A stretch of 64,000 nucleotides of DNA. It comes from an uncultured Clostridia bacterium (GTDB taxonomy: Bacteria > Bacillota > Clostridia > TANB77 > CAG-508). The notes beneath the pieces were generated by a model, which ran no database searches, was not told the origin of the DNA, and saw only the letters and a program-made list of their open reading frames with translations. Where the stretch lies: NCBI GenBank assembly GCA_944392105.1, contig CALXVM010000008.1, positions 2,148-66,147 of the forward strand, written 5' to 3'. The position numbers and the translations under genes are program-made. Positions 3,597 to 59,993 of this stretch are shown here, piece after piece (position 1 is the stretch's first letter; each line of letters starts with the position of its first letter).

Positions 3597-3820
3597 ATTT
3601 TATTTAGTAATTTTAGATTATTTTACCAAATTAGATTAATATTCCAAAATAGTTCAATCTTAAAAATTAATATAAAAAAAATAGTTTAATATAAAAGATA
3701 TCCAATAGCCTGGCAATTAATTAAAACTGCTATACTATTGGATATTTTTTATCATACAATTATTTTTCTTTTTTTGTAATTCTTTGTTTTATTTTTCGAT
3801 TTTATTTAATTTAAGAGTAG

Positions 3821-3960
3821 ATCGTATCTTAATTTCTTAAATCAGGAAATTAAGATCTGGTCCCAATTTCTCAAATTAGGAATTTCAGATCTGGTCCCAA
3901 TTTCTTCTGACCTGTCCCCAATTTTCCAAATCGGGAAGTTGGGACCTGTCCCTAATTTCC
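3821..3960 (-). repeat. Family-A palindromic repeat array (about 4 units of GAYCTGKTCCCNAATTTC with short self-complementary spacers)
   Basis: Units AGATCTGGTCCCAATTTC (3855, 3887), TGACCTGTCCCCAATTTT (3909) and GGACCTGTCCCTAATTTC (3941). Inverted repeat ATCTTAATTTC/GAAATTAAGAT at 3827-3856. The terminal unit supplies GGA AAT TAG, the end of ftsH. Confidence 0.85.
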
Positions 3961-5748
3961 AATTAGCTGTTGGAATTCTTCTGCAGATATAATTTCTTTT
4001 TCTATTAATGCTTGTGCTACTTTGTCTAGCTTATCCATGTTGTCTAATATAAGTTTTTGTGCTTTTACGTATGCATTATCTATCATTATTTTTACTTCTG
4101 CGCCAACTGCATCGCCGAATTTTTCTCCAAATAGTTGTAGCTCGTATGGGTCTTTTTCTGTGTCTATATAAATTGGTCCTAAGTCATCACTCATGCCATA
4201 TTTTACTATCATGTCTTTTGCTATTTGTGTGGCAACTTCTATGTCATTGCTTGCACCAGTTGATATATCGTTTAATGCAATTTTTTCTGCAGCACGTCCG
4301 CCTAATAAAGAGATAAGTTTTTCTTCCATTTCTGTTTTAGATATATAATACTTATCTTCGTTTGTTTTATACATTGTGTATCCGCCTGCTACACCTCTTG
4401 GAATTATAGAAACTTCCTTAATATCTTTTTGTGTTTCTAGTTGACTACTAACTATTGCATGTCCTGCTTCGTGATATGCAGTTAATTTTTTGTCTTTTTC
4501 TGAAACAACTCTACTATGTTTTTCTACTCCTATAGTTACTTTCTTTGTTGCATCTTCTATATCTTTATTAGTTATAGCGTCATGTTTATTTATTGTAGCA
4601 ATAATTGCAGCTTCATTTAAAATATTTGCAAGTTCTGCTCCAGAAAATCCAGCTGTATCTTCTGCAATATTTCTTAAGTCAACGTCGTCTGCCAATTTCT
4701 TATCTTTGGCATGTATTTTTAGTATTGCTTCTCTTCCATTTAAGTCTGGTAGTGCAATATTTATTTGTCTGTCAAATCTACCAGGTCTAAGTAAAGCTTT
4801 ATCTAGCATTTCTGGTCTATTTGTTGCTGCTAACACTATAATGGTTTCTTCTGTATCAAATCCATCCATCTCTACTAATAACTGATTTAATGTTTGATTA
4901 TTTTCAGACTCTGCTCCACTACCACTTGTTCTTCTAGAACCTACTGCATCTATTTCGTCAATAAATACTATACATGGAGCTATTTTTTTAGCTTTTTCGA
5001 ATAATTTTCTTACCCTAGAAGCTCCAAGTCCTGCGAACATTTCTATAAATTCTGAACCACTCATAGAAATAAAAGGTACATTTGCTTCTCCTGCAATTGC
5101 TTTAGCAATTAAGGTTTTACCTGTTCCAGGTTTTCCGCAAAGAAGTACTCCTCTTGGAATTTTAGCTCCCATTTCATAAAACTTATCTGGATTTTTTAAG
5201 AAATCTACAATTTCTATCATTTCTTGTTTTTCTTCGTCTAATCCTGCAACATCATCAAAAGTTATTTTTGATTTTGTAGTTTCTGCATCATATACCTTGC
5301 TCTTATCTCCCAACCCTTGCAACTTAAATAGCATAACAAATAGTATTACTAGAAGTATTGTTGGCAATAGTGTAAACAAATTACTAAATATAGTTACAAA
5401 TAAATTAGGCTTTTTTTGATTAAGCTCTATATTGTTTCCATCTTCTACTTTGCTCTGAATTAGCTCAACAAATGCTTGAGTATTTGGAACAATACATGAC
5501 CTTTCGTCTGTCTCGTCTTTTAATTTAACTTTAACAGTTGTGCTACCTGTTGTCATTTCTACTTTTTCTACATTACCATTGCCAATTTCTCTAATAAGCT
5601 CTGTATATGCAATTTCGGTGTTGTCATCTTTTTTATTAGTTGTTACAACATATATTGTTAATGCAACTGCGACAATTACAAGCACTATTGCAGCTATTAA
5701 GAAATACATATTCTTCTTTTTATTATTTTTCTTTTCTTCTTCCTTCAT
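3952..5748 (-). CDS. ftsH: ATP-dependent zinc metalloprotease FtsH
   Basis: Two N-terminal TM segments, AAA+ Walker A GKPGTGKT, Walker B IVFIDEID, and zinc site HEAGHA. Confidence 0.95.
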   Translation of the reverse strand: MKEEEKKNNKKKNMYFLIAAIVLVIVAVALTIYVVTTNKKDDNTEIAYTELIREIGNGNVEKVEMTTGSTTVKVKLKDETDERSCIVPNTQAFVELIQSKVEDGNNIELNQKKPNLFVTIFSNLFTLLPTILLVILFVMLFKLQGLGDKSKVYDAETTKSKITFDDVAGLDEEKQEMIEIVDFLKNPDKFYEMGAKIPRGVLLCGKPGTGKTLIAKAIAGEANVPFISMSGSEFIEMFAGLGASRVRKLFEKAKKIAPCIVFIDEIDAVGSRRTSGSGAESENNQTLNQLLVEMDGFDTEETIIVLAATNRPEMLDKALLRPGRFDRQINIALPDLNGREAILKIHAKDKKLADDVDLRNIAEDTAGFSGAELANILNEAAIIATINKHDAITNKDIEDATKKVTIGVEKHSRVVSEKDKKLTAYHEAGHAIVSSQLETQKDIKEVSIIPRGVAGGYTMYKTNEDKYYISKTEMEEKLISLLGGRAAEKIALNDISTGASNDIEVATQIAKDMIVKYGMSDDLGPIYIDTEKDPYELQLFGEKFGDAVGAEVKIMIDNAYVKAQKLILDNMDKLDKVAQALIEKEIISAEEFQQLIGN

Positions 5749-11505: not shown

Positions 11506-11642
11506 TTTAAAATTTTCCTCCTTAGGGTATTTTAAACAAACTTATTATATAATATATTGCATAAAATTAAAAGTATTTTAAGAAATTTTTCAGAAATGGG
11601 ACACAAAAAAATAGTAGAATGATGGTAGAACCTGAAAGAGAC

Positions 11643-11695
11643 ATAAGAAAATCTCCTTATGATATTTTTATTTTATCATAAGGAGATTTTCTTAT
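11643..11695 (-). terminator. Perfect 22-bp stem hairpin (bidirectional terminator candidate)
   Basis: ATAAGAAAATCTCCTTATGATA (11643-11664) pairs perfectly with TATCATAAGGAGATTTTCTTAT (11674-11695). The loop is 9 nt and the flanks are T-rich. Confidence 0.7.
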
Positions 11696-11700
11696 ATTTA

Positions 11701-11847
11701 TATTTCACACCGCAAAAATAATCGAGCTTCTATTTTAGATTTTAAGTCATTTTGTCGTGCTTTCGAATGATTTTTTATTATTCTTACTGTTTTAGGCGGT
11801 ATTTATACCTATTCTGTGCGTTTTAAGGCCATATTTTGCGGTCGCAT
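11701..11847 (-). other. Conserved 3' UTR element downstream of variable-protein gene (copy 1 of 3)
   Basis: Alignable by eye with 25581-25721 and 53892-54033. Shared blocks on the coding strand are CAAAATATGNCCTYTAAAACGCACA, AATAGG..AAATACCNCCTAAA, AAATCATTCGAAAG and GACAAAA. It lies between the stop codon and the terminator hairpin. Confidence 0.55.
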
Positions 11848-13185
11848 CTAAAGTGCGACCAAGACCGGACGGAACGAAACATTGCTGCTGCTGCCACCGT
11901 TGTTGTCGAAAGCGAACACGCCAGCACGCGAGCCATCGTAGTAATAGCCTCCGCGGCGGAAGAAAGGACTGCTCGTGAAAGGAAAGTAAGAGCAATCACC
12001 GTACCACGATCCGTTGCTTGTGTTGCCGTTCGCGCTCGTCTCATACACTGCGTCTCCATACTTACTTGCATTTTGATTATAGTTATTTGTGTTATTATCC
12101 GTACTTGCTTTTGTATACACATTCTTCGTCTTTGCGTCTCCATTTACTAAGCTTGAGCCATAGCTTGTTAAATTACCATTTCCGTTATTTACGTATCCTG
12201 CTACATATTCCCAGGCTCCTCCACTCATATCATACACTCCATACACATTTCCTGTTGTACTTTGTGCTCCATTATTTACATATGTGTTTCCACTTCCTCC
12301 TCCTGTGTAATATGAGCTATTACTGTTTATTGTTACTTCTTCTGTTTGTTTTCCATATTTACTTTTACTTAGGTATGCTACTGCTCCCCATTCATCATTT
12401 TTCATCATATGACTATTTAATGTTTTATTATAATTTAAACAATTTGTATATGCCGTTCCTATATAAATATATCTCCAGCTTGCTACTCCTGGTTTTACCT
12501 GTAATGTCTTTGTTGTTACGTTATCTCCGCTACTGCTATTACTATTTCCTTGTACACTACTTGCTTCAAATTTTGCTACCCATAGCCCACTTACTGTTTG
12601 ACCATAATTAAATGCTGGATGGATATTCCAATTTCCTGCTCCACTTGCATTATTAAAGCTTGTTCTTCCTGTACTTGTTTCGTTCGTTAAACCTTTCATG
12701 AACTCTACTTCTATTGTTCCTGTGCTACTACTATGATATCCACTTGTTATACTATATGCATATCTTGGTATCCATACCCACATGCTTCCATCACTTGTTT
12801 TTGCATTTGCCCATTTCTTTGCTGAATAATCATACCAATCTGGGTCGCTTCCTGTTGTCTCTACCCAATCTCCTGCTCCGCCATTTGCTGTTTCGTCCCA
12901 TTTTATAGGTGTCATTCCTTCCCCTAAATCTGGCGTGTTCACTCCTTTTTCTTCATTATAACTTCCATCGCTTGGTAACGTTGGCTCCTCTGGCGTGCTT
13001 CCTCCTATTGTATTATTCATAATACTTGCTAAATCATTATATAATTGGTTTAACTCGTCTTGCTCTTGTTCTACTGCTTCCTTTGTTTTATTTGCTGCCT
13101 CTTGTGCCTTTTTTATTATTCCATTATCACTAAATATTGTACTTATTGTTACACTTGCTAATATTAATAATACTACAATCGTCAC
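11848..13185 (-). CDS. Pilin-like N-terminus / C-type-lectin-fold (FGE-sulfatase-like) surface protein with hypervariable C-terminus, paralog 1; 5' end apparently frameshifted
   Basis: Paralog of 25722-27179 and 54034-55446 (WVWIPRYAYSITSGYHSS, IHPAFNYGQTVSG, HMMKNDEWGAVAYLSKSKYGK, GVYDMSGGAWEYV, SFRPVLV). The GITLIALVVTIVVLLILA segment is in this frame but has no ATG. The expected leader (ATG 13300, RBS GGGAGG, MRVKATKK...) is in another frame, which implies a 1-nt shift near 13210-13225. Confidence 0.7.
   Translation of the reverse strand: MTIVVLLILASVTISTIFSDNGIIKKAQEAANKTKEAVEQEQDELNQLYNDLASIMNNTIGGSTPEEPTLPSDGSYNEEKGVNTPDLGEGMTPIKWDETANGGAGDWVETTGSDPDWYDYSAKKWANAKTSDGSMWVWIPRYAYSITSGYHSSSTGTIEVEFMKGLTNETSTGRTSFNNASGAGNWNIHPAFNYGQTVSGLWVAKFEASSVQGNSNSSSGDNVTTKTLQVKPGVASWRYIYIGTAYTNCLNYNKTLNSHMMKNDEWGAVAYLSKSKYGKQTEEVTINSNSSYYTGGGSGNTYVNNGAQSTTGNVYGVYDMSGGAWEYVAGYVNNGNGNLTSYGSSLVNGDAKTKNVYTKASTDNNTNNYNQNASKYGDAVYETSANGNTSNGSWYGDCSYFPFTSSPFFRRGGYYYDGSRAGVFAFDNNGGSSSNVSFRPVLVAL
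11851..12055 (-). other. G+C-rich hypervariable patch (DGR-type variable region candidate, VR1)
   Basis: Hand count gives 66/120 G+C at 11881-12000, against 17/60 at 12301-12360 in the same gene. Scaffold codons are identical to VR2 and VR4. Variable codons are NNC/NNT. The hairpin GGTCGCA-N7-TGCGACC (11840-11860) encloses the stop codon. Confidence 0.65.
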
Positions 13186-13663
13186 TACTAATGCTATTAG
13201 CGTTATCCCGCTTGTTTTCTCTTTGCTTCTTTACCTTTAGCAAATTTTTTATTTCTAGCTCATCAATCTTGTTTAATTTTTTTGTTGCTTTTACTCTCAT
13301 TTTATTTTCCTCCCATTTACTTCTTTTGTTATTATTGCCAACTTTTCTAGTATTAATCATCTTTATTACATATAATTTAATATCTTTTAATATTGCTGGC
13401 CATCTTTTATTAATGTTCTTAATAAAAAATATGGAATTATTTATTCTTTTTTCTTTTATCGTATAGAATAAATATATCATTTCACTTCTTGATAGTCAAT
13501 ATTAATTATTCCTATTTTTATTACATTTTCTTTACGTTTTTATTACAATTATCTTATGACAAAATCATAGTAAAAACTTTCAATTTACCTTTTAAAGCGT
13601 AAAAATAGGCAGGTTCAAAAGACCCTGCCTATAAATTAAGTTAACACCCCTTTTACGTTTATT

Positions 13664-18912: not shown

Positions 18913-19052
18913 GTAATTCCACCTTTTTTGTTTTTTGATAATTATATCACAAATTTGTTACAATTTTGTTAAAATATTGAAAAAATGTTTTTTATATGTT
19001 AGAATTATATAGATTTAAAATGGTTAAACTATTAGAAAAGGAGAGATTTCAA

Positions 19053-20784: not shown

Positions 20785-20839
20785 GCTGACCTGTCCCCGA
20801 TTTCCCAAATCGGGAAATTGGGACCTGTCCCTAATTTCC
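20785..20839 (-). repeat. Family-A palindromic repeat, one full ~55-bp unit
   Basis: GCTGACCTGTCCCCGATTTCCCAAATCGGGAAATTGGGACCTGTCCCTAATTTCC. Its last 9 nt encode G-N-stop of the M23 gene. Confidence 0.85.
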
Positions 20840-22105
20840 AGGTGGGTTAACATATTTTAGTGGGTCTTGCGTGTAGCCGTTTATTCTTACTTCGAAGTGG
20901 CAGTGTGGACCTGTAGAATTTCCTGTTGATCCTACTTCCATTATTAAGTCGCCTTGTTTTACTTGTTTGCCTTTTTCTGTTAGTATTTTTTGTCCGTGAG
21001 CATACAATGTTGTAATTCCGTTTCCATGGTCTATCATAACGCAGTTTCCATAGCTTCCCAATTCTCCTGCATAAGATACTACGCCATCTAGTGCTGCGAC
21101 TATAGGTGCTCCATAGTCTGCTCCTCCTATGTCTAAACCTTGATGTAGTTTTACTACACCTTGTATTGGGTGCTCTCTTATTCCATAATTAGATGTTATT
21201 ACGGTTCCAGACACCGCTACAGGCCAAATTAATGCTCCTCCTGTGTATTGTATATCTATGCTTGGAGTTGTAGAAATTTGCATTATTAATGTTTCTATTC
21301 TTAATTGCTCATTTTTGTATGCTGTTATTTCGTCATTAAGCTTTTTCTCGTTTTCTTGTAGGCTGTTAACATATCCTTGTTGCAAGCTTCTTGTATTACT
21401 AAGTACAAGTGACATCTGTTCTGCTTTTGCCTTTATTACTTTTGTTTGAGCATTTTCGTTCTCTATTTTTTGTTTATATTGTTCTATCTCTTCTTTTTTC
21501 TGAGCAACTTCATTCATAAGGTTAATATCTACTTCTGTTATTTGTCTCATAAAATAAATAGATGACAAAAACTCTGGTAAACTTTTAGACCTTAATAATA
21601 CATCTAAATATGATACCTCTCCTGCTTTAGATATTGCTACAAGTCTTTTTCTTACTGTGTCGTCCTTTTGCTCATAGTCTTTTGTTGTCTCTTCTAATTC
21701 TATTGTCATTGATTTTATAGATTCTTCATAACTGTTTACTTTGTTATTTAGTTCGTTAATTTGATTTTCATAATCTCTTATAGAATCGTCCAATTTTTGA
21801 ATTTGAAGTAGAGTATTTGACATTTCGTTTTGTACATATTCAAGTTGTAAACTAGATTGATTTATTTTTTCTTCGACTTCTTCTTTTTGTTGGTTTAAAC
21901 TGTCTATAGTATTTGTAGCTTGATTTTGCTCTGTGTTTGAGCCTTCGTTATTCTGTGTAGTTGCATTTGTAGTATTTGAATTTGTGCTTGTCATAGAAGT
22001 ACCTGCATTTTCGCTTGCTATGTCTATACTACTTGCTATAACTGTAACAGAATAACTAATTATTAAAATTAAAGCAAGGAGAGTGCAAAGTATTTTGTTT
22101 TTCAA
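20831..22105 (-). CDS. Coiled-coil M23 family metallopeptidase (EnvC/PcsB-like architecture)
   Basis: Signal peptide, long coiled coil, and an M23 domain with HQGLDIG and GPHCHFEVR. It lies downstream of ftsEX. Confidence 0.85.
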   Translation of the reverse strand: MKNKILCTLLALILIISYSVTVIASSIDIASENAGTSMTSTNSNTTNATTQNNEGSNTEQNQATNTIDSLNQQKEEVEEKINQSSLQLEYVQNEMSNTLLQIQKLDDSIRDYENQINELNNKVNSYEESIKSMTIELEETTKDYEQKDDTVRKRLVAISKAGEVSYLDVLLRSKSLPEFLSSIYFMRQITEVDINLMNEVAQKKEEIEQYKQKIENENAQTKVIKAKAEQMSLVLSNTRSLQQGYVNSLQENEKKLNDEITAYKNEQLRIETLIMQISTTPSIDIQYTGGALIWPVAVSGTVITSNYGIREHPIQGVVKLHQGLDIGGADYGAPIVAALDGVVSYAGELGSYGNCVMIDHGNGITTLYAHGQKILTEKGKQVKQGDLIMEVGSTGNSTGPHCHFEVRINGYTQDPLKYVNPPGN

Positions 22106-24519: not shown

Positions 24520-25233
24520 TTACACCTCACTATTATAGCCACCTTTTTTGTCGTCCCTAATAATGTGGCCATCTTCTATTTGTATTACTCTTTTTTTCAT
24601 TTTGTCTACTATATCTTTTGCATGTGTTGCTACAACAACAGTTGTTCCTCTTTTATTAATGTCGTCTAGTAATGTCATAATATCCCATGCTGTGTCTGGG
24701 TCTAAGTTTCCTGTAGGCTCATCTGCAATAAGCATTGATGGGTTATTTACTAAAGCTCTTGCTAAAGCAACCCTTTGTTGCTCTCCACCAGATAGCTCAT
24801 TTGGATAAACTTTTGCTTTGTTACTTAATCCAACAAGTGACAAAACCATTGGAACTTGCCTTCTTATATGTCTTTTTGTTGCATTAACAATGTACATCGC
24901 AAAAGCAACATTGTCATAAACAGTTTTATCTGGCAAAAGTCTAAAGTCTTGGAAAACAACTCCCATACTTCTTCTTAAATATGGAACTCTTTTTGGTTTT
25001 AAATATGTTGTATCTTTGCCATTAATTATAATGTTTCCTGATGTAGGATTTTCCTCTTTTAAAATTAACTTAATTAATGTTGACTTTCCTGAACCAGAAG
25101 TACCTACTAAAAACGCAAACTCACCTTTTTCTATGTTGAAATTTGCCTTATGAACTGCTTCTGTCCCTGTATCGTATGTTTTACTAACGTTTCTAAATTC
25201 AATCATCAGTATCTCCTCGTCACTTTTTGACAT
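24520..25233 (-). CDS. ftsE: Cell division ATP-binding protein FtsE
   Basis: Walker A GTSGSGKST, ABC signature LSGGEQQRVALARAL, Walker B MLIADEPTGNLD. The true start may be the internal MIEFRNV. Confidence 0.93.
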   Translation of the reverse strand: MSKSDEEILMIEFRNVSKTYDTGTEAVHKANFNIEKGEFAFLVGTSGSGKSTLIKLILKEENPTSGNIIINGKDTTYLKPKRVPYLRRSMGVVFQDFRLLPDKTVYDNVAFAMYIVNATKRHIRRQVPMVLSLVGLSNKAKVYPNELSGGEQQRVALARALVNNPSMLIADEPTGNLDPDTAWDIMTLLDDINKRGTTVVVATHAKDIVDKMKKRVIQIEDGHIIRDDKKGGYNSEV

Positions 25234-25414
25234 TATATAATAAATTACAACATTATAATAACAATAAAATATATTATTTGCAATATATTTTTAGATAAAA
25301 TTCACAGAAAATTTACATTTGGTTAAATTTAATTTTTTTATGATGTTACATATAGTTTTATGTAAAGCAAATAATTGTATTTTAATTGTTATTAATTGTA
25401 TTGCTATGCAAAAA

Positions 25415-25450
25415 AAAGATAGTATTTTTATTTAATAAAATACTATCTTT
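25415..25450 (-). terminator. 14-bp stem hairpin ending the variable-gene 2 transcript
   Basis: AAAGATAGTATTTT (25415-25428) pairs with AAAATACTATCTTT (25437-25450). Confidence 0.6.
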
Positions 25451-25580
25451 ATCAATTTTTATATTAGGTAAACTTTTTATTCTTTTCCTCTGCCATCTCT
25501 ATTTTCCCCCAATCTATATCATCTATTATTATAGGTTACTATATAGTTTACCGTACATCTATATGAGATATTTTGGTATT

Positions 25581-25721
25581 GCACCCGTGAAATACCCGAC
25601 CTCGTATTTTGCGTTTTGAGGCATTTTGTCCGACTTTCGAATGATTTATCATAGGTTGTGCTATTTTAGGTGGTATTTACGCCTATTGTGTGCGTTTTAG
25701 AGGCATATTTTGTAGTCACAT
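25581..25721 (-). other. Conserved 3' UTR element (copy 2 of 3)
   Basis: Near-identical over most positions to 53892-54033 and more loosely to 11701-11847. Each copy has two CTCYAAAACGCA boxes, and candidate stems show compensatory changes (CCTC..GAGG, and CTT..AAG in copy 1). Confidence 0.55.
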
Positions 25722-27179
25722 CTAATTTGCGACCAAGACCGGACGGAACGAAGTGTTGCTGCTAGCACCGCCATCGTTGCCGTTGAAATAGAACACGCCA
25801 GCACTCGAGCCATCGTTGTAATAGCCTCCGCGGATGAAGAAAGGAGCGCTCGTGCCAGGAAAGCCAGAGTAATCGCCGTACCACGATCCGTTGCTTGAGT
25901 TACCGTTTGAGCTCGTCTCGTAAACCGCGTCTCCATACACTCCTGCATTTGCACTGTAATTACTACTGTTATTATCTGAACTTCCTTTTGCATACACGTT
26001 CTTCGTCTTTGAGTCACTACTATTTACTAAACTTGCTCCATAGTTTGTTAAGCTTGCATTTCCATTATTTACATATGCTGCTACATATTCCCATGCTCCT
26101 CCGCTCATATCATATACTCCATACACATTTCCCGTTGTACTTGCTTTTACTCCTTGTGTACTTGTATAATCTGTCGTTGTTCCTGTATTTTGAGATGCAC
26201 TTGCACTATTTCCTGCTGATCCTGTTATGAAACTGCTACTATTATTTATCCATACTTCTTCTGTTTCTTTTCCATATTTACTTTTACTTAAATATGCTAC
26301 TGCTCCCCACTCATCATTTTTCATCATATGGCTATTTAGTGTGCTATTATAACTTTTACATTTATTATATATATCATTTACACTTATACCTCTCCAGCTC
26401 TGTACTCCTGGTTGTACCTTTATTACTCCACTACTTCCTGCACTACTTGAGCTTGCATTACTTTGGCTTGCTTCAAATTTTGCTACCCATATTCCACTTA
26501 CTGTTTGCCCATAGTTAAATGCTGGATGGATATTCCAGTTTCCTTGTCCACTTGCATTATTAAAGCTTGTTCTTCCACTTGTTGTTTCGTTTCTTGTTCC
26601 TTTCATAAATTCTACTGCTATTGTTCCTGTACTGCTACTATGATATCCACTTGTTATACTATATGCAAACCTTGGTATCCATACCCACATACTTCCATCT
26701 GCTGTTTTTGCGTTTGCCCATTCCTTATTTTCATAATCATACCATTCTGGGTTGCTTCCGTCTGTTTCTACCCAATCTCCTGCTCCCTCATTTGCTGTTT
26801 CGTCCCATTTTATTGGCGTCATTCCTTCTCCTAAATTTGGTGTGTTTACTCCTTTGTCTTCACTAAAACTTCCATCACTTGGCAATTCTGGCTCTTCTGG
26901 TGTTGTTCCGCTTCCGCCTATTCCATTTAGCATATTTTCCATATAGTCTGCTATTTCATTCATTTGTGTTTGTTCATTTATTGTTGCTTCTTTTGTTTTG
27001 TTTGCCGCTTCTTGTGCCTTTGCTATTATTCCGTTTTCACTAAATACTAAGCTTATTGTTATTCCTGCTAATATCAATAATACTACAATTGTTACAACTA
27101 GTGCTATTAGTGTTATACCTTGTGTTTTTTTACAATATGTTTTGCTACTATCTTTTTGCAATAAAAATGTTTTCTCCAT
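25722..27179 (-). CDS. Pilin-like N-terminus / C-type-lectin-fold (FGE-sulfatase-like) surface protein with hypervariable C-terminus, paralog 2
   Basis: ATG 27179 with RBS GGGAGG is preferred over the track start 27242. Leader MEKTFLLQKDSSKTYCKKTQG, then ITLIALVVTIVVLLILAGITISLVF (class III signal-like). C-terminal GVYDMSGGAWEYV ... PFFIRGGYYNDGSSAGVFYF ... SFRPVLVAN. Confidence 0.8.
   Translation of the reverse strand: MEKTFLLQKDSSKTYCKKTQGITLIALVVTIVVLLILAGITISLVFSENGIIAKAQEAANKTKEATINEQTQMNEIADYMENMLNGIGGSGTTPEEPELPSDGSFSEDKGVNTPNLGEGMTPIKWDETANEGAGDWVETDGSNPEWYDYENKEWANAKTADGSMWVWIPRFAYSITSGYHSSSTGTIAVEFMKGTRNETTSGRTSFNNASGQGNWNIHPAFNYGQTVSGIWVAKFEASQSNASSSSAGSSGVIKVQPGVQSWRGISVNDIYNKCKSYNSTLNSHMMKNDEWGAVAYLSKSKYGKETEEVWINNSSSFITGSAGNSASASQNTGTTTDYTSTQGVKASTTGNVYGVYDMSGGAWEYVAAYVNNGNASLTNYGASLVNSSDSKTKNVYAKGSSDNNSSNYSANAGVYGDAVYETSSNGNSSNGSWYGDYSGFPGTSAPFFIRGGYYNDGSSAGVFYFNGNDGGASSNTSFRPVLVAN
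25725..25935 (-). other. G+C-rich hypervariable patch (DGR-type variable region candidate, VR2)
   Basis: See the finding at 25722-25935. Stop-spanning hairpin at 25714-25734 (7 pairs in the mRNA sense, including 2 G-U). Confidence 0.65.
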
Positions 27180-27289
27180 GTTATTCCTCCCACTTTTGTT
27201 TCTTTTGTTATTGTTTCCCATTTTTTTATTTTTAATCATCATTTTACTTATAGGAACAATCTTTTCTTTTTATTTCAATTTGCGATATT

Positions 27290-27312
27290 ATTATATCATC
27301 TCATTATGAGAT
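27290..27312 (-). promoter_or_regulatory. -10 box (TATAAT) abutted by palindrome ATCTCAT-N-ATGAGAT upstream of variable gene 2
   Basis: Minus-strand TATAAT is the complement of 27290-27295. The palindrome is at 27298-27312. The same ATCTCA-N3-TGAGAT core abuts a TATAAT upstream of paralog 4. Confidence 0.4.
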
Positions 27313-27525
27313 TTTGCATTTCTTTTATATTACATTTTTATTACAATTTCATTTCGTTTTCATATACTTTTAAGTGCATTTTATCTAAACGAATAATTAT
27401 ACTCTTATTTCTTTATCCTAAAAACCTATTTTTACATAAAAAATAGAAGGCATAGTAAAATGCCCTCCAAATATAAATTTCCTATTTTAACATTTATTAA
27501 CTTATTTAATCTATTTAATTTATTT

Positions 27526-28650
27526 CTAAAACCATATTTCTACACTTGCCTTTGTATAATAATATTCCATCCTTACTCCTAAAACTTCTTGTAATTGTTC
27601 TAAAGTTATAGTAGCTGGAAGTTTATTTCCATGAACTTCGTTATCTTTGTATTGTATTTCATAAGCTTTTCCGTTATAGTCAAATTTCAATCCTGTTGTA
27701 AGTTTATCATTTAAAAGTATTATTTGCTCTGTATTTGTTACAACATCTACTAAACTTACACTATATTCTCTTGTTTGCTTATTAAATAATGCCTTTAATG
27801 GTTGCTTTTCTCCTCCTACAGTATCTCTACTTTTTGCCTGTTTTCCATCTATAACAACCATAAGTTCTTTTGGTGTTTCAAAATTTTCTATATCTTCTGT
27901 CGGAATTTCACTTAAATCCATATTATTTGTTTTTAAATACCAGTAATACTCATATTCTTCCTCATAAATTTGTTGTTCCTCTGAGTTTTCTGGATTGTAA
28001 TATACAGAGCTTACATAATCGTCTTTCCTAATTTTTGGAGTATTTCCAAAGTTAGAAATTTGCAGTCTATATATTTGCATAATTTTCATAGCTTTTTTCG
28101 TAGCATATGGTATTTGTGAGTAATTATCTATATCTATAAACACTTTGCAAGTTAAGAAATAGAACCCCTTATTCATTACACTTTCGTTATAGCCAATTTC
28201 TATTTTAGTACCTTCAAAAAACTCCTCATATTTTGGATTCTCATAATAATACTTAACTAAGTTCTCTTCGAAATCTGTTTTATAATTCCCCTCTATTTCT
28301 TTTTCTGCATTAAACTCTATTATTGGCTCGGTTGTAGTTTTTAACACATATGTACCTGTTCCTCTTCTAGAAACAGTATTATCTTGTACTATTTCAAAAT
28401 TTCTATGGTACCTACTCTCTAACTCTTTTATAAACTTATCTTTATTAGTTCCTGTAAAAAGTTGTATTCTAGGCATTAGTAAGTAAATCATATATATACA
28501 AACTGCCACAAAAGCCAGTATTATTACAATAGTCATTAACTTTGTAAATACACCTAGCCCTTTTATAAAACTATTAGTACCTTCTGGTTTTATATCTTCA
28601 TATCCATTTGCTTTTTTATCTATAATTTCTTGCATTTTTTCAGGTTTCAT
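27526..28650 (-). CDS. Hypothetical membrane-anchored protein
   Basis: Long ORF with one TM segment (LMTIVIILAFVAVCIYMIYLL). I recognise no motif. Confidence 0.6.
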   Translation of the reverse strand: MKPEKMQEIIDKKANGYEDIKPEGTNSFIKGLGVFTKLMTIVIILAFVAVCIYMIYLLMPRIQLFTGTNKDKFIKELESRYHRNFEIVQDNTVSRRGTGTYVLKTTTEPIIEFNAEKEIEGNYKTDFEENLVKYYYENPKYEEFFEGTKIEIGYNESVMNKGFYFLTCKVFIDIDNYSQIPYATKKAMKIMQIYRLQISNFGNTPKIRKDDYVSSVYYNPENSEEQQIYEEEYEYYWYLKTNNMDLSEIPTEDIENFETPKELMVVIDGKQAKSRDTVGGEKQPLKALFNKQTREYSVSLVDVVTNTEQIILLNDKLTTGLKFDYNGKAYEIQYKDNEVHGNKLPATITLEQLQEVLGVRMEYYYTKASVEIWF

Positions 28651-28669
28651 CTTACGTTACTCCTTTTTG

Positions 28670-28699
28670 TTGTCAATTTTCTCCGTCCCCATTGACAAC
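28670..28699 (-). repeat. Family-B palindromic repeat (TTGTCAAT - 13-nt loop TTTCTCCGTCCCC - ATTGACAA)
   Basis: Perfect 8-bp arms. It encodes the last 8 codons and stop (VVNGDGEN*) of the transketolase C-terminal subunit. Two related copies are at 55764-55826. Confidence 0.8.
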
Positions 28700-29614
28700 T
28701 AACTGGCATATCGCTTGTGCGTCTATTCTAAAGTATTTCATTAAATCTGCTGCTTTTCCAGATTTTCCAAAGCAGTCTGGTATTCCCAATCTTATAACTT
28801 TAGTTGGGTATTCTTCTGCTAATACTTCGCATACAGCAGTTCCAAGCCCTCCTATTATACTATGGTCCTCTACTGTAATTATTTTATCTGTTTCTTTAGC
28901 ACATTTTACTATTAATTCTCTATCTATTGGTTTTATTGTATGTATATCAACAACTCTTACGTCAAAACCTCTTTCTTTTAGCAGTTCTTGTGCTTTTAGA
29001 GCTTCTGAAACTGTAACTCCTGTTGCAAATATTGTGGCATCTGTACCATTTCCTATTTGCACACCTTTTCCTATTTCGAATTTTTGATTTTCCTCATATA
29101 TAACAGGTGTTGCAATTCTTGCTAATCTTAAATAAACTGGTCCATCTATTTTAGATATTTCTTCAACTGCCCATTTTGTTTGTACATCATCAGAAGTACT
29201 AATTACTGTCATATTAGGTAGTCCTCTCATTAAGTTTATATCCTCTAACATTTGATGAGTTGCTCCATCTTCTCCCACTGTTACTCCTGCATGTGTTCCG
29301 CAAATTTTAACATTTAATTTTGGATATGCTACACTGCATCTTATTTGGTCATATACTCTACCTGTTGCAAATGCTGCAAACGTACTAACAAAAGGAACTT
29401 TTCCAAATGTTGAAAGCCCATCAGCTATTCCAATCATGTTCTGTTCTGCTATTCCCACATCTATAAATCTATCTGGGAACTTTTTTGCAAATAACGATGT
29501 TTTAGTTGATTTTGCTAAATCTGCATCTATTACAACTACATTTTTATTTTCTTCGCCAAGTTTTTCTAATGCTTCACCAAAACTTTGACGAGTTGCTATT
29601 TTCTCTTCTCTCAT
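28673..29614 (-). CDS. Transketolase, C-terminal (pyrimidine-binding) subunit
   Basis: Typical split-transketolase B subunit (GIAEQNMIGIADGL, EDGATHQ). Confidence 0.9.
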   Translation of the reverse strand: MREEKIATRQSFGEALEKLGEENKNVVVIDADLAKSTKTSLFAKKFPDRFIDVGIAEQNMIGIADGLSTFGKVPFVSTFAAFATGRVYDQIRCSVAYPKLNVKICGTHAGVTVGEDGATHQMLEDINLMRGLPNMTVISTSDDVQTKWAVEEISKIDGPVYLRLARIATPVIYEENQKFEIGKGVQIGNGTDATIFATGVTVSEALKAQELLKERGFDVRVVDIHTIKPIDRELIVKCAKETDKIITVEDHSIIGGLGTAVCEVLAEEYPTKVIRLGIPDCFGKSGKAADLMKYFRIDAQAICQLVVNGDGEN

Positions 29615-37060: not shown

Positions 37061-37115
37061 GCTGACCTGTCCCCAATTTCCCGATTTGGGAAGTTGGGAC
37101 CTGTCCCTAATTTCC
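37061..37115 (-). repeat. Family-A palindromic repeat, one unit, central loop inverted relative to other copies
   Basis: GCTGACCTGTCCCCAATTTCCCGATTTGGGAAGTTGGGACCTGTCCCTAATTTCC. The loop is GATTT here and AAATC at 3929, 20807 and 63156. The last 9 nt encode G-N-stop of the ATPase. Confidence 0.85.
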
Positions 37116-38945
37116 AACCAGCACTCTTAACGCATTTAATATTGCTAAAACAGATACACCAACATCTGCAAAAACAGCTTGCCACATGTTAGATAAACCA
37201 ATTGCACTTAATATAAGTACTAGTATTTTTACTACAATTGCAAATATAATATTTTGTTTTACAATTTTTAATGTTTTTTTAGAAATTTTTATTGCATCTA
37301 CTACTTTTGAAGGTTCGTCTGTCATTAGTACTACATCTGCCGCTTCAATAGCAGCATCACTGCCAAGTCCTCCCATTGCAATTCCAATATCTGAAATTGC
37401 TAATACAGGAGCATCGTTAATTCCATCTCCAACAAAAGCAAGTTTTCCTTTCTCCGATTTACTTTTCATTAATTCTTCTACTTTTTCTACTTTGTCATTA
37501 GGTAATAACTCTGTATAAACTTCGTCTAAGCCTAATTCTTTTGCTACACTTTCTCCTACAGCTTTCTTATCTCCTGTTAACATTACTATTTTCTTTACAT
37601 TGTTTTTCTTTAACTTTTCAATTGCTTTTTTAGCATCTGCTTTTATTTTATCAGATATTATAATAGTTCCTTTAAATTGATTATTTATAGCTACATATAA
37701 TATTGTTCCTATTTCATTACATTTTATGTATTCAATATTTTTTTCTTGCATTAGTTTTTCGTTTCCTACAAAAACTTCTTTTCCGTCAACTACTGCATTT
37801 ACTCCTAAACCTGATAACTCATGCGTTTCTGATATTTTTTTATTGTCTATATCTTTTCCATATGCTTTTTTTAAAGAATTTGCTATTGGATGATTTGAAA
37901 AGCTTTCGGCATATGCAGCGTATTTAATTAAGTCTTCTTTTGTTATATCTACAGAGTTTACTTTTTTTACTTCAAATACACCTTCTGTTAATGTTCCTGT
38001 TTTGTCAAATACTACTACTTCTGTTTTAGATAAAGCTTCCAAATAATTGCTTCCTTTAACTAATACTCCTAATTTAGATGCCCCACCAATGCCTCCGAAA
38101 AATCCTAATGGTATTGATATAACAAGTGCACAAGGACATGATACTACTAAAAATGTCAATGCTCTATATAGCCATTGTATAAATTCCGTTTCTTTAAATA
38201 TTATTGGTGGAATTATTGCAAGTAATACTGCTATCACAACAACTATTGGTGTATAGTACTTTGCAAATTTACTAATAAAGTTTTCTGACTTAGACTTTTT
38301 ACTACTTGCATTTTCTACTAAATCTAATATTTTGCTAACAGTAGACTCTCCGAAACTCTTTGTTACTTTAATCTCTATTAAACCATTTTGATTTATACTT
38401 CCACTTAATACTTCGTCTCCAATGTTTACTTCTCTTGGAACAGATTCACCCGTTAATGCAGAAGTGTCAAGCATAGAATTTCCGTCTACTATGGTTCCAT
38501 CTAGTGGTACTTTCTCTCCAGGTTTTACTATTATTATATCTCCTATACTTATTTTATCTGGACTTACTTTCTCTATACTGCCATTTTTCTTTATATTTGC
38601 AAAATCTGGTCTAATATCCATAAGGCTAGCTATTGATTTTCTAGATTTATCTACAGCATAGCTTTGGAACATTTCTCCCACTTGGTAAAATAGCATAACT
38701 GCAACTGCTTCTGGATATTCTCCAATTGCGAAAGCACCTATTGTAGCAATTGTCATAAGAAAATTCTCGTCAAAAACTTCTCCTTTAAATATATTCTTTA
38801 TTGCTTCTATAAGTACATCTAATCCCACTATTAAATAACTAATAATATATATTCCAATATTAATCCAAGCATTTTCAAAAGGAATAATTAAAGATATTAA
38901 AAATAATATTAATGCAATTACAACTTTTATTACTTCCTTTTTCAT
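37107..38945 (-). CDS. Heavy-metal translocating P1B-type ATPase (Cd/Zn/Co class likely)
   Basis: CPC motif (VSCPCALVISIP), DKTGTLT, GDGINDAP. No N-terminal HMA domain. It is paired with an ArsR-family gene. Confidence 0.9.
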   Translation of the reverse strand: MKKEVIKVVIALILFLISLIIPFENAWINIGIYIISYLIVGLDVLIEAIKNIFKGEVFDENFLMTIATIGAFAIGEYPEAVAVMLFYQVGEMFQSYAVDKSRKSIASLMDIRPDFANIKKNGSIEKVSPDKISIGDIIIVKPGEKVPLDGTIVDGNSMLDTSALTGESVPREVNIGDEVLSGSINQNGLIEIKVTKSFGESTVSKILDLVENASSKKSKSENFISKFAKYYTPIVVVIAVLLAIIPPIIFKETEFIQWLYRALTFLVVSCPCALVISIPLGFFGGIGGASKLGVLVKGSNYLEALSKTEVVVFDKTGTLTEGVFEVKKVNSVDITKEDLIKYAAYAESFSNHPIANSLKKAYGKDIDNKKISETHELSGLGVNAVVDGKEVFVGNEKLMQEKNIEYIKCNEIGTILYVAINNQFKGTIIISDKIKADAKKAIEKLKKNNVKKIVMLTGDKKAVGESVAKELGLDEVYTELLPNDKVEKVEELMKSKSEKGKLAFVGDGINDAPVLAISDIGIAMGGLGSDAAIEAADVVLMTDEPSKVVDAIKISKKTLKIVKQNIIFAIVVKILVLILSAIGLSNMWQAVFADVGVSVLAILNALRVLVGN

Positions 38946-46763: not shown

Positions 46764-48014
46764 TTATTGCAATTCATAGTTCCATTCTTCTTCTGTTTGG
46801 TCATCTATTTTATGTATACTATCTTCTGTGACATTAGATTTTAGAATAACTACGGGGCGCACCGCAAAGCCGTAGTTGTACTCGCCGCCGTCCGAGAGGA
46901 ACTGGCCGTAACCGCGCACAACGGTATCACCGCCATCCGAATGCACAAAGCGAACACAGAAGTGAGCATAACTCGAGCCAGCAACCACGCAGCGTGAAGC
47001 GAGCCAGTACGCCTTTCCGCTTCTGTACTCAACATTGTCAAAAAGTAAATTATATAATCTCTGGTCTGTAGCTGTTGTTAAAGCTGGGTTATTAGCCATG
47101 TATCCATAATAATCACTTGTTTTACTAAAATTACTCTTTGTTCCTGCTAAGTAGTCTTCTGGACTTGCATATTGGTTTGTATATGAATAAGTCTGTCCAT
47201 AATGCCCACTTTCGTCTAAACTTGGTTTTCCTGTTTCATCTACTGTAACTCCTACTACTTGGTTTACGTCTTCTATTGTTACGCTTCTTGCTGTTTGTGC
47301 CAAGTCATTTTTATATAATGCACATATGTTGTTTAATTCTGTCTCTGCATTTATATATCCTTTAGCACCATTTAAAAAATAATATGGAACTTCTGGATAT
47401 GAAGAATTTGACTCCCTTTTCATTGGGCTTCCTGCTATTAGTTTTATTCCTCCTGTTGCTTCATCTTTTCCTAATACCCTCCATGTTAATTGGTTATTTG
47501 CTACATTAAATATTTGGTCTGAGTCTCCTCCATCTGTTATTAAATCTTCCATCCCTGTTTTACTTCCCAAACTTGTGTAGCTTCCACTTGTTGGATTTTG
47601 GTAGTTTACATAGTCTCCTATTTTTAACTCTCCTGCATCATATAATTCTACTAATGTTCTTGCTGTGTTAAATGTTATTGTTCTGCTTCCTATTGTTACA
47701 CTTCCTGTTTCTTTTATTTGTGCTTTTTCTTCTGCTGTTATTTGTTTTTGACTTTCTAAACTATCTAATAGCTCATCTAAACTTTGCGAACTTCCTCCTA
47801 CATATTCTGTTAATGATTTATCTAATTCCCACATGTCTCTTGCTTCTTCTACTGCTGCCCCTCTTGTTTCTTCTTTTGCCTCTTTTGCTTTTGTTACTAC
47901 TCCATTTTCACTAAATACTAGACTTATTGTTATTCCTGCTAGTATTAGCAATACCACAATAGTAACAACTAGTGCTATTAGCGTTATTCCTCTTTTTCCT
48001 CTTACTCTTTTCAT
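46764..48014 (-). CDS. Pilin-like N-terminus / DUF1566-like C-type-lectin-fold protein with G+C-rich C-terminal patch (element-borne)
   Basis: ATG 48014 with RBS AAGGAGGTG is preferred over the track start 48074. MKRVRGKRG then ITLIALVVTIVVLLILAGITISLVFSENG. C-terminal YWLASRCVVAGSSYAHFCVRFVHSDGG...YGFAVRPVV resembles the DUF1566/Lcl-type fold end. Confidence 0.8.
   Translation of the reverse strand: MKRVRGKRGITLIALVVTIVVLLILAGITISLVFSENGVVTKAKEAKEETRGAAVEEARDMWELDKSLTEYVGGSSQSLDELLDSLESQKQITAEEKAQIKETGSVTIGSRTITFNTARTLVELYDAGELKIGDYVNYQNPTSGSYTSLGSKTGMEDLITDGGDSDQIFNVANNQLTWRVLGKDEATGGIKLIAGSPMKRESNSSYPEVPYYFLNGAKGYINAETELNNICALYKNDLAQTARSVTIEDVNQVVGVTVDETGKPSLDESGHYGQTYSYTNQYASPEDYLAGTKSNFSKTSDYYGYMANNPALTTATDQRLYNLLFDNVEYRSGKAYWLASRCVVAGSSYAHFCVRFVHSDGGDTVVRGYGQFLSDGGEYNYGFAVRPVVILKSNVTEDSIHKIDDQTEEEWNYELQ
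46853..47030 (-). other. G+C-rich patch (DGR-type variable region candidate, VR3)
   Basis: The coding strand reads TAC TGG CTC GCT TCA CGC TGC GTG GTT GCT GGC TCG ... GGC TTT GCG GTG CGC CCC GTA. It is adenine-poor and G+C-rich inside an AT-rich gene. Inverted repeat CTACGG-N14-CCGTAG at its 3' boundary (46851-46876). Confidence 0.55.
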
Positions 48015-48181
48015 TTTTCTTGCACCTCCTTTCGCCTTTTCTTCTTTTATTTGCTTATTTTTCTCTTCTTCCATTTTTTACTTTCTCCCCCCTCTCTTTT
48101 TTGGCACGCAAAAATGACAGGCTATTTTTTATATCATTAATAAAGGCTTTTTCGCCCTTTCTTATTTCTCTAAAACTATTC

Positions 48182-53703: not shown

Positions 53704-53840
53704 TATTTCGCCCTTTCTAAAGTATAATTATTTGAAGCTCTACTTCCTGTAGAACTTTTCTTGCTTTATATATAATTTTTTCTTTATAACTATGTAAAAT
53801 TATATAATATAACTGCCTATAAATCAATACATTAGGCAAA

Positions 53841-53881
53841 AAATAACAGTACCAAAATATAAAATATTTGTACTGTTATTT
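53841..53881 (-). terminator. 12-bp stem hairpin ending the variable-gene 4 transcript
   Basis: AAATAACAGTAC (53841-53852) pairs with GTACTGTTATTT (53870-53881). Confidence 0.55.
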
Positions 53882-53891
53882 TATTTATATT

Positions 53892-54033
53892 CTACACCGT
53901 CAAAATACTCGACCTCTTATTTTGCGTTTTGAGACGTTTTGTCCGACTTTCGAATGATTTACATAGGTTGTGCCGATTTAGGCGGTATTTGTGCCTATTA
54001 TGTGCGTTTTAGAGGCATATTTTGTGGTCACAT
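53892..54033 (-). other. Conserved 3' UTR element (copy 3 of 3)
   Basis: Aligns with 25581-25721 along its whole length. Confidence 0.55.
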
Positions 54034-55446
54034 CTAAATTGTGGCTAAGACCGGACGGAACGAGACGCTGCTGTTGCTAACGCCATAGTAACACTCGAAA
54101 TAGAACACGCCAGCACTAGAACCACCGCCGAAATAGGCTCCGCGATAGAAGAAAGGAAGGCTCGTGTGAGGAAAGCTAGAGGAATCGCTGTACCACGATG
54201 TTGCTCCGCTACCGCTTGTGCTCGTTTCGTACACCGCGTCTCCATACACTCCTGCGTTTGCGTTATAATTATTTGTTTGATTTTCTGAGCTTGCTTTACT
54301 ATACACGTTCTTCGTCTTTGGATCTCCATTTACTAAGCTTTTTCCATAGCTTGTTAAATTGCCATTTCCGTTATCTACATACGCTGCTACATATTCCCAT
54401 GCTCCTCCGCTCATATCGTATACTCCCCAGACGTTTCCGGTTGTACTTTGTGCTCCATTATTTACATATGTGTTTCCACTTCCTCCTCCGGTATAATATG
54501 AACTATTGCTATTTATTGTTACTTCATCGTTTTTTCCATATTTACTTCTACTTAAATATGCTACTGCTCCCCACTCGTCATTTTTCATCATATGACTATT
54601 TAATGTCTTATTATAATTTAGACAGTTTGTATATATGCTATCTACTGTTATACTTCTCCAACTCTGTACTCCTGGCTGTACCATTATTTTTCCATTACTA
54701 TTACTTGCTTCAAATTTTGCTACCCATATTCCACTTACTGGTTGTCCATAGTTAAATGCTGGGTGTATTACATATCCATTTGGAAATTGTGTATAATTTG
54801 TTGTTGTACTATCATTATATTCTACTATTGTTTGTCCTGTTGCTGTTTCGTTACTCGTTCCTTTCATAAATTCTATGCTTATTTCTGTTGCTGTACTTGT
54901 ATGGTATCCTGTACTTGGAATATTATATGCATATCTTGGTATCCACACCCACATACTTCCATCTGTAGTTTTTGCATTTGCCCATTTCTTTGCTGAATAA
55001 TCATACCAATCTGAGTCACTTCCGTCCGTTTCTACCCAATCTCCTGCTCCGCCATTTGCTGTTTCGTCCCATTTTATTGCTGTCATTCCTTCTCCTAAGT
55101 TTGGCGTATTTACTCCTTTTGACTCGCTATAACTCCCATCGCTTGGTAATTCTGGCTCAGGTTCCGGTGTTGTACTTCCTCCACCTATTCCATTTAACAT
55201 ATTTTCCATTGCAGCTGTTACATCATTCATTTGTGTTTGTTCATTTATTACTGCTTCTTTTGTTTTATCTGCTGCCTCTCTTGCTTTTGCTATTATTCCA
55301 TTTTCACTAAACACTAAGCTTATTGTTATTCCTGCTAGTATTAAAAGTACTACAATCGTTACAACTAGTGCTATTAGTGTTATACCTTGTGTTTTTTTAC
55401 AATATGCTTTTCTATTATCTTTTTGTAATAAAAACGTTTTCTCCAT
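54034..55446 (-). CDS. Pilin-like N-terminus / C-type-lectin-fold (FGE-sulfatase-like) surface protein with hypervariable C-terminus, paralog 4
   Basis: ATG 55446 with RBS GGGAGG. Leader MEKTFLLQKDNRKAYCKKTQG, then ITLIALVVTIVVLLILAGITISLVF. C-terminal GVYDMSGGAWEYV ... PFFYRGAYFGGGSSAGVFYF ... SFRPVLATI. Confidence 0.8.
   Translation of the reverse strand: MEKTFLLQKDNRKAYCKKTQGITLIALVVTIVVLLILAGITISLVFSENGIIAKAREAADKTKEAVINEQTQMNDVTAAMENMLNGIGGGSTTPEPEPELPSDGSYSESKGVNTPNLGEGMTAIKWDETANGGAGDWVETDGSDSDWYDYSAKKWANAKTTDGSMWVWIPRYAYNIPSTGYHTSTATEISIEFMKGTSNETATGQTIVEYNDSTTTNYTQFPNGYVIHPAFNYGQPVSGIWVAKFEASNSNGKIMVQPGVQSWRSITVDSIYTNCLNYNKTLNSHMMKNDEWGAVAYLSRSKYGKNDEVTINSNSSYYTGGGSGNTYVNNGAQSTTGNVWGVYDMSGGAWEYVAAYVDNGNGNLTSYGKSLVNGDPKTKNVYSKASSENQTNNYNANAGVYGDAVYETSTSGSGATSWYSDSSSFPHTSLPFFYRGAYFGGGSSAGVFYFECYYGVSNSSVSFRPVLATI
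54037..54245 (-). other. G+C-rich hypervariable patch (DGR-type variable region candidate, VR4)
   Basis: Same scaffold codons as VR1 and VR2, with variable NNY codons. A weaker stop-spanning hairpin at 54026-46. Confidence 0.6.
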
Positions 55447-55608
55447 GTTATTCCTCCCACTTTTGTTTCTTTTGTTATTGTTTCCCATTTTTTTATTTTT
55501 AATCATTATTTTACTTTTTGTTCTGCATTACATTTATATATTAACATTTCAAGTTAGTATAATGATTATTAACTTTAATATAGAAACAATTTTATCTCAT
55601 TTTGCAAT

Positions 55609-55634: not shown

Positions 55635-55763
55635 ATATTTCTTTTTCTTTACATTTTTATTACAATTTTGTTTCACTTTTGATTACATTTTAAGTTATGT
55701 TTTGGCTTGCATTTTAATTGCTTCTTTGACTGCTCTTTCGATAGATTTTATCTAGTAATTAAG

Positions 55764-55826
55764 TTATCAACGTTCTCCGTCCCTATTGACAAGTTGTCAA
55801 AAATCTCCGTCCCCATTGACAAGTTT
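55764..55826 (-). repeat. Family-B palindromic repeats, two tandem units
   Basis: TTATCAACGTTCTCCGTCCCTATTGACAAG followed by TTGTCAAAAATCTCCGTCCCCATTGACAAG. The mtaB reading frame runs through both (…CQWGRRFLTTCQ*). Confidence 0.8.
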
Positions 55827-59912: not shown

Positions 59913-59993
59913 GGAAATTGAGGACAGGTCAAAGAAATTAGGACCAGATCCAAATTTCTTATTTTAAGAAATTTAGATCTGGTCCCAATTTCC
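59913..59993. repeat. Family-A repeat cluster with units in both orientations
   Basis: GGAAATTGAGGACAGGTC and GAAATTAGGACCAGATC are inverted units. Then AAATTTCTTATTTTAAGAAATTT and AGATCTGGTCCCAATTTCC (a forward unit). It ends 2 nt before the deoD stop. Confidence 0.8.

Follow-up and report, generated by a model that had tools for sequence, protein, structure and literature searches.

A non-coding block of about 140 nt recurs behind three genes of an uncultured Clostridia bacterium, and the question it raises is whether the block is a functional element or DNA that was carried along when the genes were duplicated. We analysed a 64,000-nt stretch of DNA (contig C8:2148-66147, hereafter the window) from a genome of 1.5 Mb in 31 contigs with 28% G+C. 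A first-pass annotation had suggested a structured RNA or a DNA element tied to the variable region, for example a recognition or priming platform for retrohoming, with duplication as the alternative.

The three target genes and the conserved block

According to the ORF list the three window genes with the block are all on the minus strand (11848-13185, 25722-27242 and 54034-55506; copies 1, 2 and 3). Pfam assigns their products an N-terminal methylation motif (N_methyl), as in pilins, and a C-terminus with the FGE-sulfatase/C-type-lectin fold. Each gene ends in a G/C-rich variable region (VR) followed by TTCGTTCCGTCCGGTCTTGG and by a 7-bp hairpin with the TAG stop codon inside its loop (stop codons at 11848-11850, 25722-25724 and 54034-54036). 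In the copy-2 gene the VR spans about 25725-25880, the IMH-like TTCGTTCCGTCCGGTCTT at 25735-25752 lies immediately upstream of the hairpin, and the true start, with an SD, is likely near 27179. The main features are listed below.

25722..27242, minus strand: DGR target gene, copy 2 (ORF list; Pfam N_methyl and FGE-sulfatase; VR comparison with the template repeat, TR)
25714..25734, minus strand: DGR target hairpin, copy 2 (GGTCGCA, 7-nt loop AATTAGA with the TAG stop, TGTGACT)
11840..11860: the same hairpin at copy 1
54026..54046: the same hairpin at copy 3
25570..25713, minus strand: block copy 2 (alignment; BLAST; covariance-model match 25570-25734, 180.6 bits)
11696..11839, minus strand: block copy 1, the most A/T-decayed copy, 31% GC (covariance model, 166.7 bits)
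53883..54025, minus strand: block copy 3 (alignment, BLAST; covariance model, 172 bits)
25411..25455, minus strand: first terminator-like hairpin with T-run after copy 2, ~115 nt beyond the block
11645..11693, minus strand: A/T-rich terminator-like hairpin after copy 1, locus-specific, resembling the IS256-family right-end hairpin (85% over 59 nt, BLAST)
53838..53882, minus strand: terminator-like hairpin with T-run after copy 3, locus-specific; paralog homology ends here

The annotation had placed a block of ~140 nt after the stop-codon hairpins of these genes, at 25581-25721 for copy 2. BLAST and alignment bear this out as homologous sequence in all three, with copy 2 at 25570-25713 by our coordinates. 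The homology extends ~140-165 nt past the hairpin and is far above chance. Copies 2 and 3, described earlier as matching at most positions, are 90% identical over 132 nt (BLAST, E 1e-45), and copy 1 is 76% identical to each of them (E 1e-21 to 1e-23). The block is also G+C-rich for this genome, as had been noticed, copy 1 having 31% and the other two copies 38-40%, compared to 28% for the genome.

Two boxes had been described in every copy. They are exact in copies 2 and 3, as CTCTAAAACGCA and CTCAAAACGCA (box 1 at 25689-25706 and box 2 at 25607-25624 in copy 2), but copy 1 has the variants CCTTAAAACGCA and CTTAAAATCTA. The boxes make up two ~22-nt direct repeats ~80 nt apart, and a genome-wide search found neither the box sequences elsewhere nor an inverted partner of them.

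Past the block, each locus goes into its own terminator-like hairpin and unrelated DNA, and the position of these hairpins suggests that the block belongs to the 3' UTR. The strict terminator rule misses A/T-rich terminators that are visible by eye, including that at 11645-11693. No consistent promoter or terminator was found within the block. Coding potential was considered for a 21-codon frame and rejected, its ATG not being kept in copy 3.

Several observations concern the genes themselves. The leader of the copy-1 gene (window 13185-13365, minus strand) is out of frame with the pilin-like hydrophobic segment, near an A7 run, which could mean a pseudogene, phase variation or an error in the assembly. 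The motif ATTGTAATAAAAATGTAA is found upstream of the TATAAT boxes of the paralogs (window 27330-27350, 55655-55675 and 13535-13560, minus strand) and also at 18938-19000, and is a candidate operator of a common regulator. A 436-aa ORF at window 46764-48074 (minus strand) has an N-terminal pilin-like region like that of the targets (76% over 170 nt) and carries neither VR nor IMH.

Distribution among paralogs and related genomes

The annotation spoke of three paralogs. Three full block copies do exist, but the family is larger, with eight VR paralogs plus the TR: the IMH occurs at nine genome loci, eight VR genes and one assembled TR. Each paralog stands alone between housekeeping genes, and in this genome the block does not stand at the 3' end of all of them: three have it in full, one has half of it (C13a), one has a copy displaced by an insertion sequence (C2) and three have none (C13b, C26 and C27). 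The mutual homology of C8a, C8b and C8c extends 130-190 nt beyond the hairpin, while for C13b, C26, C27 and C2 homology to the other paralogs ends at the hairpin. In C13a the block breaks off after its first half and gives way to a MITE-like palindrome and IS sequence; the VR of C13a has a 2-nt deletion that breaks the frame.

The C2 block copy (C2:96891-97024) lies 1.45 kb from the C2 VR, behind a REP-like 30-mer and a 1.4-kb IS256-family element. We rejected this solo copy as a sign of independence from the VR: the IS/REP insertion has split a formerly adjacent pair, and at the syntenic locus of the species CAG:273 VR and block adjoin. Apart from this displaced copy, the block was never found away from this gene subfamily. 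Matches to a strict 30-nt pattern (18 metagenome contigs and two genome hits) nearly all have the IMH exactly 107-108 nt upstream.

Repeats are frequent around these loci. The IS256-family element at C2:95481-96888 encodes a 411-aa transposase; its ends are also found at C27 left, C13 right and C31 left, and in three target genes the VR hairpin is interrupted or directly followed by an element of this family. Block copy 1 is followed by a remnant of the right-end hairpin (window 11642-11697). The REP-like unit TGTCAATGGGGACGGAGATTTTTGACAACT of ~30 nt, with a TTGTCAA/TTGACAA inverted repeat, is present as two tandem copies at window 55770-55830 and at least 15 more times genome-wide, one copy lying between the C2 VR hairpin and the IS. 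Two further families of palindromic intergenic repeats, such as CTGACCTGTCCCCAATTTCCCAAATCGGGAAGTTGGGACCTGTCCC, occur at window 3797-3971, 20786-20850, 37062-37126, 59919-59994 and 63023-63199.

Using the covariance model, we found the block in 3 of the 51 species of genus CAG-273: our species, CAG:273 and G173. BLAST over 151 genomes of the family revealed no further carriers. A blastn search of 50,697 phage records, sensitive to ~65-70% identity, did not find the block either, and none of the IMG/VR viral contigs matches the strict 30-nt pattern exactly. The genome G151 has a related DGR whose remote targets lack the block and carry other 3' flanks, two of them alike; paralog-shared tails therefore recur with unrelated sequences. 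VR genes without the block are also present in G003 (L058 and L061).

Relation of the block to the DGR

The TR is located at C8:68420-68565 (minus strand), 2.3 kb past the window end and outside any gene, and is A-rich at the variable positions. Upstream, the TR unit has a promoter-like sequence of its own and a terminator, and 146 nt upstream of the TR the contig ends; downstream comes a conserved spacer of ~110 nt. The spacer is unrelated to the block and there is no block at the TR. Complementarity between block and TR-spacer RNA is within the control range, and comparison of the block with TR spacers from three species gave no significant local similarity (1 of 12 tests at P = 0.007).

The TR has a clean cognate target in C13b, which is intact and actively diversified: mismatches to the TR fall at 16 of 39 TR adenines and at 1 of 84 other positions. 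C13b adjoins the TR by synteny with a CAG:273 contig. It has the IMH and the hairpin and lacks the block, which is therefore not present at every functional VR. Across metagenome samples, adenine positions vary at loci that bear the block as well. Together, a cognate target without the block and diversified loci with it suggest that the block is neither required by the DGR nor inhibitory to it.

The idea of a recognition or priming platform for retrohoming gains no support, the TR, its spacer and the cognate C13b all being devoid of the block. The annotation had recommended looking beside a TR and beside unrelated genes; the block is confined to this paralog subfamily. In phage BPP-1 the requirement does not extend past +24, and a foreign gene can be made a target with IMH plus hairpin (PMC3240598). 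A G/C-rich inverted repeat within ~35 bp 3' of the VR is provided here by the hairpin at 25714-25734; in the block, which comes after this hairpin, no stable inverted repeat is present. The C2 and C26 VRs (C2:95270-95438 and C26:10259-10427) have lost the 3' arm of the hairpin and differ from the TR at 18/84 and 26/84 non-adenine positions, compared to 1-12/84 in intact targets. VR decay thus tracks the loss of the hairpin (C2, C26) and not the loss of the block, and these hairpin-broken, decayed VRs are a natural experiment that supports the hairpin requirement.

Two RT fragments are found at contig ends (C25:54-740 and C10:71-424, both minus strand), and the C25 cassette has the order target, MutS-like, avd, RT. 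The C25 RT frame stops at YMDG and is followed by GTGCGACCCG, which is like the 5' end of a group II intron; the contig ends 66 nt later. A group II intron at this position was considered and rejected, given that its one sign is the GTGCG after YMDG, that Rfam finds nothing and that so little of the contig follows. The C10 RT fragment runs into a multi-copy repeat that is also present at the ends of C1 and C9.

A 5' patch distinguishes the main-group VRs from the assembled TR (CCTnnCACGAGC versus CCGTATTCGAGC). The patch matches TR1 of the CAG:273 species and not the assembled TR, and therefore a second TR is probably missing from the assembly. In the CAG:273 species, L050 (G003 C22:1-1345) has two stand-alone TR units in tandem ~950 nt apart with the same spacer, each with the promoter-like TTGATATAAT and with no RT between them.

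RNA structure

The annotation had further proposed a structured RNA, with stems showing compensatory change. The Rfam search that it called for returned no family in the window at the gathering threshold, and at E <= 10 over 25380-25800 gave one chance 13-bit match outside the block. The folding energies of four copies, on both strands, do not differ from those of dinucleotide-preserving shuffles (z -0.2 to -1.5), and the predicted folds differ from copy to copy. For 12 distinct sequences RNAalifold gives no consensus helix beyond the stop-codon hairpin, which is the sole helix retained and is 96% paired. No long imperfect palindrome or long-range pairing was found in the block, and in 6 of 8 types the stability of a terminal A/U hairpin does not exceed that of shuffles.

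Neither of the two stems put forward as compensatory holds up well. Among distinct sequences, the TAGGC/GCCTA stem is broken in half, with 52-61% of cells paired; the CAG:273-type, L033, L039 and G173 sequences have lost it. Pairing reaches 86% in the GCCTC/GAGGT stem (HP2), where two pairs have changed on both sides, but with 5 bp and a 14-nt loop this stem is weak, and it is absent from the RNAalifold prediction. A further pairing around box 1, (A)TGCCT...AGGC(GT) (HP1), has 4-6 bp in most types, with one pair varying between G-C, G-U and A-U. Both hairpins, (A)UGCCU...AGGC and GCCUC...GAGGU, enclose AAAACGCA in their loops and are mostly kept, with few two-sided changes. Their stems have 4-5 bp and their loops 14-16 nt, and the commonest type, L029, is mismatched in both.

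These helix comparisons involve about 8 independent sequences. Two of the three varying pairs (HP1 pair 3 and HP2 124/139) are accounted for by G:C to A:T transitions on each side, the commonest mutations to be expected in a genome of 28% GC. The third, a C-G/G-C change at HP2 pair 121/142, needs transversions and depends on the alignment register. A structured RNA is not demonstrated, and the block is unfit for filing as a candidate RNA family.

Evolution of the block

Synonymous p-distances between the paralogs are 0.35-0.42 overall, 0.26-0.54 per 60-codon window outside the VR and 0.38-0.54 just before the VR. With overall values of 0.35-0.42 the duplications must be old, and the similarity of the block therefore needs either ongoing gene conversion or some constraint. 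The p-distance of the block (0.10-0.30) is below that of the adjacent synonymous coding sites in every pair, which excludes pure neutrality without recent conversion.

Comparison with related genomes bears on the choice between conversion and constraint. Three loci of the CAG:273 species have blocks that are identical or differ from one another at 1-2 of 178 nt: the CorA-adjacent locus, which is the ortholog of the C2 locus, the PBP-adjacent locus (L045), which is the ortholog of the copy-1 locus, and L042. The gene bodies at these loci are ~9-14% different, and the block there differs from ours by ~25-30%. The block at L045 is identical to that at L029/L043, orthologs of the C2 locus, and ~70% identical to our copy 1. 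Between the two species the copy-1 locus is ~93-95% conserved in the neighbour gene and promoter and ~70% in the block, and the terminator is unalignable. In G173 the two block copies are closest to each other. Copies within a genome are more alike than copies at orthologous loci across species, and this combination of within-genome identity and between-species divergence points to concerted evolution rather than purifying selection.

Exchange between paralogs can be seen in a closely related strain. L036 (an ERZ1643246 contig) is 95-100% identical to window 25000-29400 in the flanks and ~83% identical overall in the target gene, which is a mosaic of C13a-like and copy-3-like segments and returns from C13a-like to copy-2 sequence in the middle of the block. 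This is the one exchange junction mapped in the block; others end upstream of the VR (L043 versus L047).

Within CAG:273, polymorphism is 1/137 sites in the block and 2/222 in adjacent intergenic DNA, a comparison of low power. The invariant columns of the block are A in 34 of 55 cases and show mild clustering (P = 0.025), and the older-looking copies are G+C-poorer (31-32% versus 38-41%). The A-rich invariant columns and the level of polymorphism are consistent with neutral A/T-biased decay. Along the block, mean pairwise identity falls from 0.85 at box 1 to 0.65-0.68 in the middle and rises again to 0.80 around box 2; an identity gradient away from the hairpin was looked for and not seen, the profile being blocky.

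The last of the earlier proposals, that the block is carried along by gene duplication, is the one that gains support: the block occurs with a single paralog subfamily, in 3 of 51 species, and evolves in concert with the genes. The annotation had set against a functional element the lack of covariation together with occurrence as part of recent whole-gene duplications alone. This is essentially what we find, except that the duplications are old (pS 0.35-0.42) and not recent.

Explanations of the block

We think it probable that the block is the ordinary co-duplicated 3' tail or flank of one DGR-target paralog subfamily, kept alike by recombination, and that it is neither a folded RNA nor needed for retrohoming. 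Expansion of the family would have copied the block together with the promoter and the gene, and ongoing homologous recombination (gene conversion) among the paralogs would keep the block copies alike. The near-identical VR scaffold, IMH, hairpin and block would form the downstream homology arm, and the conserved pilin N-terminus and promoter the upstream arm. Retrohoming would be served by the IMH and the stop-codon hairpin and not by the block. We infer that recombination rather than selection lies behind the lower divergence of the block relative to synonymous sites.

That lower divergence might alternatively reflect a functional 3' UTR element, in which two tandem stem-loops present the A-rich AAAACGCA to a protein or small RNA and control the stability, translation or localisation of the adhesin mRNA. 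Such an element would fit the two conserved sub-blocks with one box in each, boxes that occur nowhere else in the genome, and the pairing of HP2 (86%, two pairs doubly changed) and HP1 (4-6 bp in most types). However, the stems are short (4-5 bp, with 14-16-nt loops) and not in the RNAalifold prediction, the energies do not beat those of shuffles, L029, the most abundant type, has a mismatch in each stem, and transitions from G:C to A:T explain two of the three varying pairs, the third being register-dependent. Moreover, four of eight paralogs have no VR-adjacent block (three lack it and that of C2 is displaced), with the intact and diversified C13b lacking any; the block outpaces the genes overall in divergence between species, and its polymorphism equals that of neighbouring intergenic DNA. 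The blocky conservation, the clustered invariant columns and the two weak hairpins nevertheless leave real 3' UTR function a small but appreciable chance. We give less credence to a selected recombination-promoting sequence with a role like that of Neisseria Sma/Cla, allowing efficient cassette exchange, possibly via a protein on the two direct repeats. The genes are indeed mosaic between strains at a fixed locus with one junction inside the block, the block is homogenised within species, and it has the two ~22-nt direct repeats ~80 nt apart. Yet that junction is the single one mapped in the block and the other exchanges end upstream of the VR, any shared flank is a homology arm without selection for that role, paralogs lacking the block (C26 and C13b) also share segments with others, and a candidate binding protein was not found. 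A combined version, where the two boxes are stem-loops displaying AAAACGCA that are bound by a dedicated protein and mark the remote DGR targets of one adhesin subfamily for regulated expression or for paralog exchange at the DGR hairpin, strikes us as a long shot.

The position of the block, directly abutting IMH and hairpin, could suggest an accessory cis element of the DGR for remote (trans) targets only, acting for example in the recruitment of RT, Avd and cDNA or in replication stalling. The block is found at remote targets only and not at the TR-adjacent target, and the loci that bear it show adenine-specific VR variation across metagenome samples. We consider this very unlikely: IMH and hairpin are enough in the characterised system (PMC3240598), the block has no similarity or complementarity to the TR or spacer, the remote targets of the related DGR in G151 and the VR genes L058 and L061 in G003 do without it, and VR decay follows the loss of the hairpin in C2 and C26 rather than that of the block. 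Least credible of all, and already largely refuted, is a part of a mobile element (MITE, transposon end or integron attC-like cassette site) that moves the target genes. Paralogs scattered singly among housekeeping genes and the abundance of REP, MITE and IS copies beside these loci would agree with it; against it, the boxes have no inverted partner anywhere in the genome, there is no attC-like long imperfect palindrome, the block is never away from the gene subfamily save for the IS-displaced C2 copy, and the homology also spans the promoter and the whole gene.

Comparison with known systems

The setting of the block is that of the BPP-1 IMH and hairpin/cruciform (Guo et al. 2011, PMC3240598): here too an IMH-like VR end is followed by an inverted repeat, in this case over the stop codon, and the block comes immediately 3'. 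As in the BPP-1 paradigm, the hairpin is found at all intact targets and is absent from the TR. The known requirement in BPP-1 ends ~24 bp after the VR, and the block corresponds to the next ~140 nt. In contrast to BPP-1, the hairpin loop has 7 nt and holds the stop codon, instead of a 4-nt GRNA, and for the block the cognate and other targets have no copy and the TR RNA no counterpart.

All pil loci of Neisseria (pilE/pilS) are followed by the Sma/Cla repeat. It is similar in being a conserved non-coding 3' block in a recombining pilin-type family, where the exchanged segments are bounded by conserved ends. Unlike Sma/Cla, to which it has no sequence relation, our block follows expressed-type genes with promoters in all copies, not silent cassettes; variation here is made mainly by the DGR, and a role of the block in recombination is putative. 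Integron attC sites (59-be) resemble the block in length (57-141 nt) and in lying directly 3' of a single gene, but the block has no imperfect palindrome and no R''/R' core sites, and there is no integrase and no array, the copies being dispersed. REP and MITE sequences are likewise short non-coding multi-copy repeats, of which this genome has several families, some beside these loci; the block differs in being non-palindromic, without terminal inverted repeats or target-site duplications, and confined to a gene subfamily.

The block thus gives no ground for extending the known DGR target signal of IMH and hairpin. Were a residual constraint on it real, the block would be a small regulatory element with a restricted taxonomic distribution, and if the box-binding reading were true it would couple retroelement mutagenesis with cassette shuffling. 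As a by-product, the analysis reveals a multi-target DGR in CAG-273 gut Clostridia, with eight pilin-like targets and stand-alone TR units. The target genes are diversified by the DGR and are also reshuffled between paralogs and strains, and therefore two layers of diversification act on the same adhesin family.
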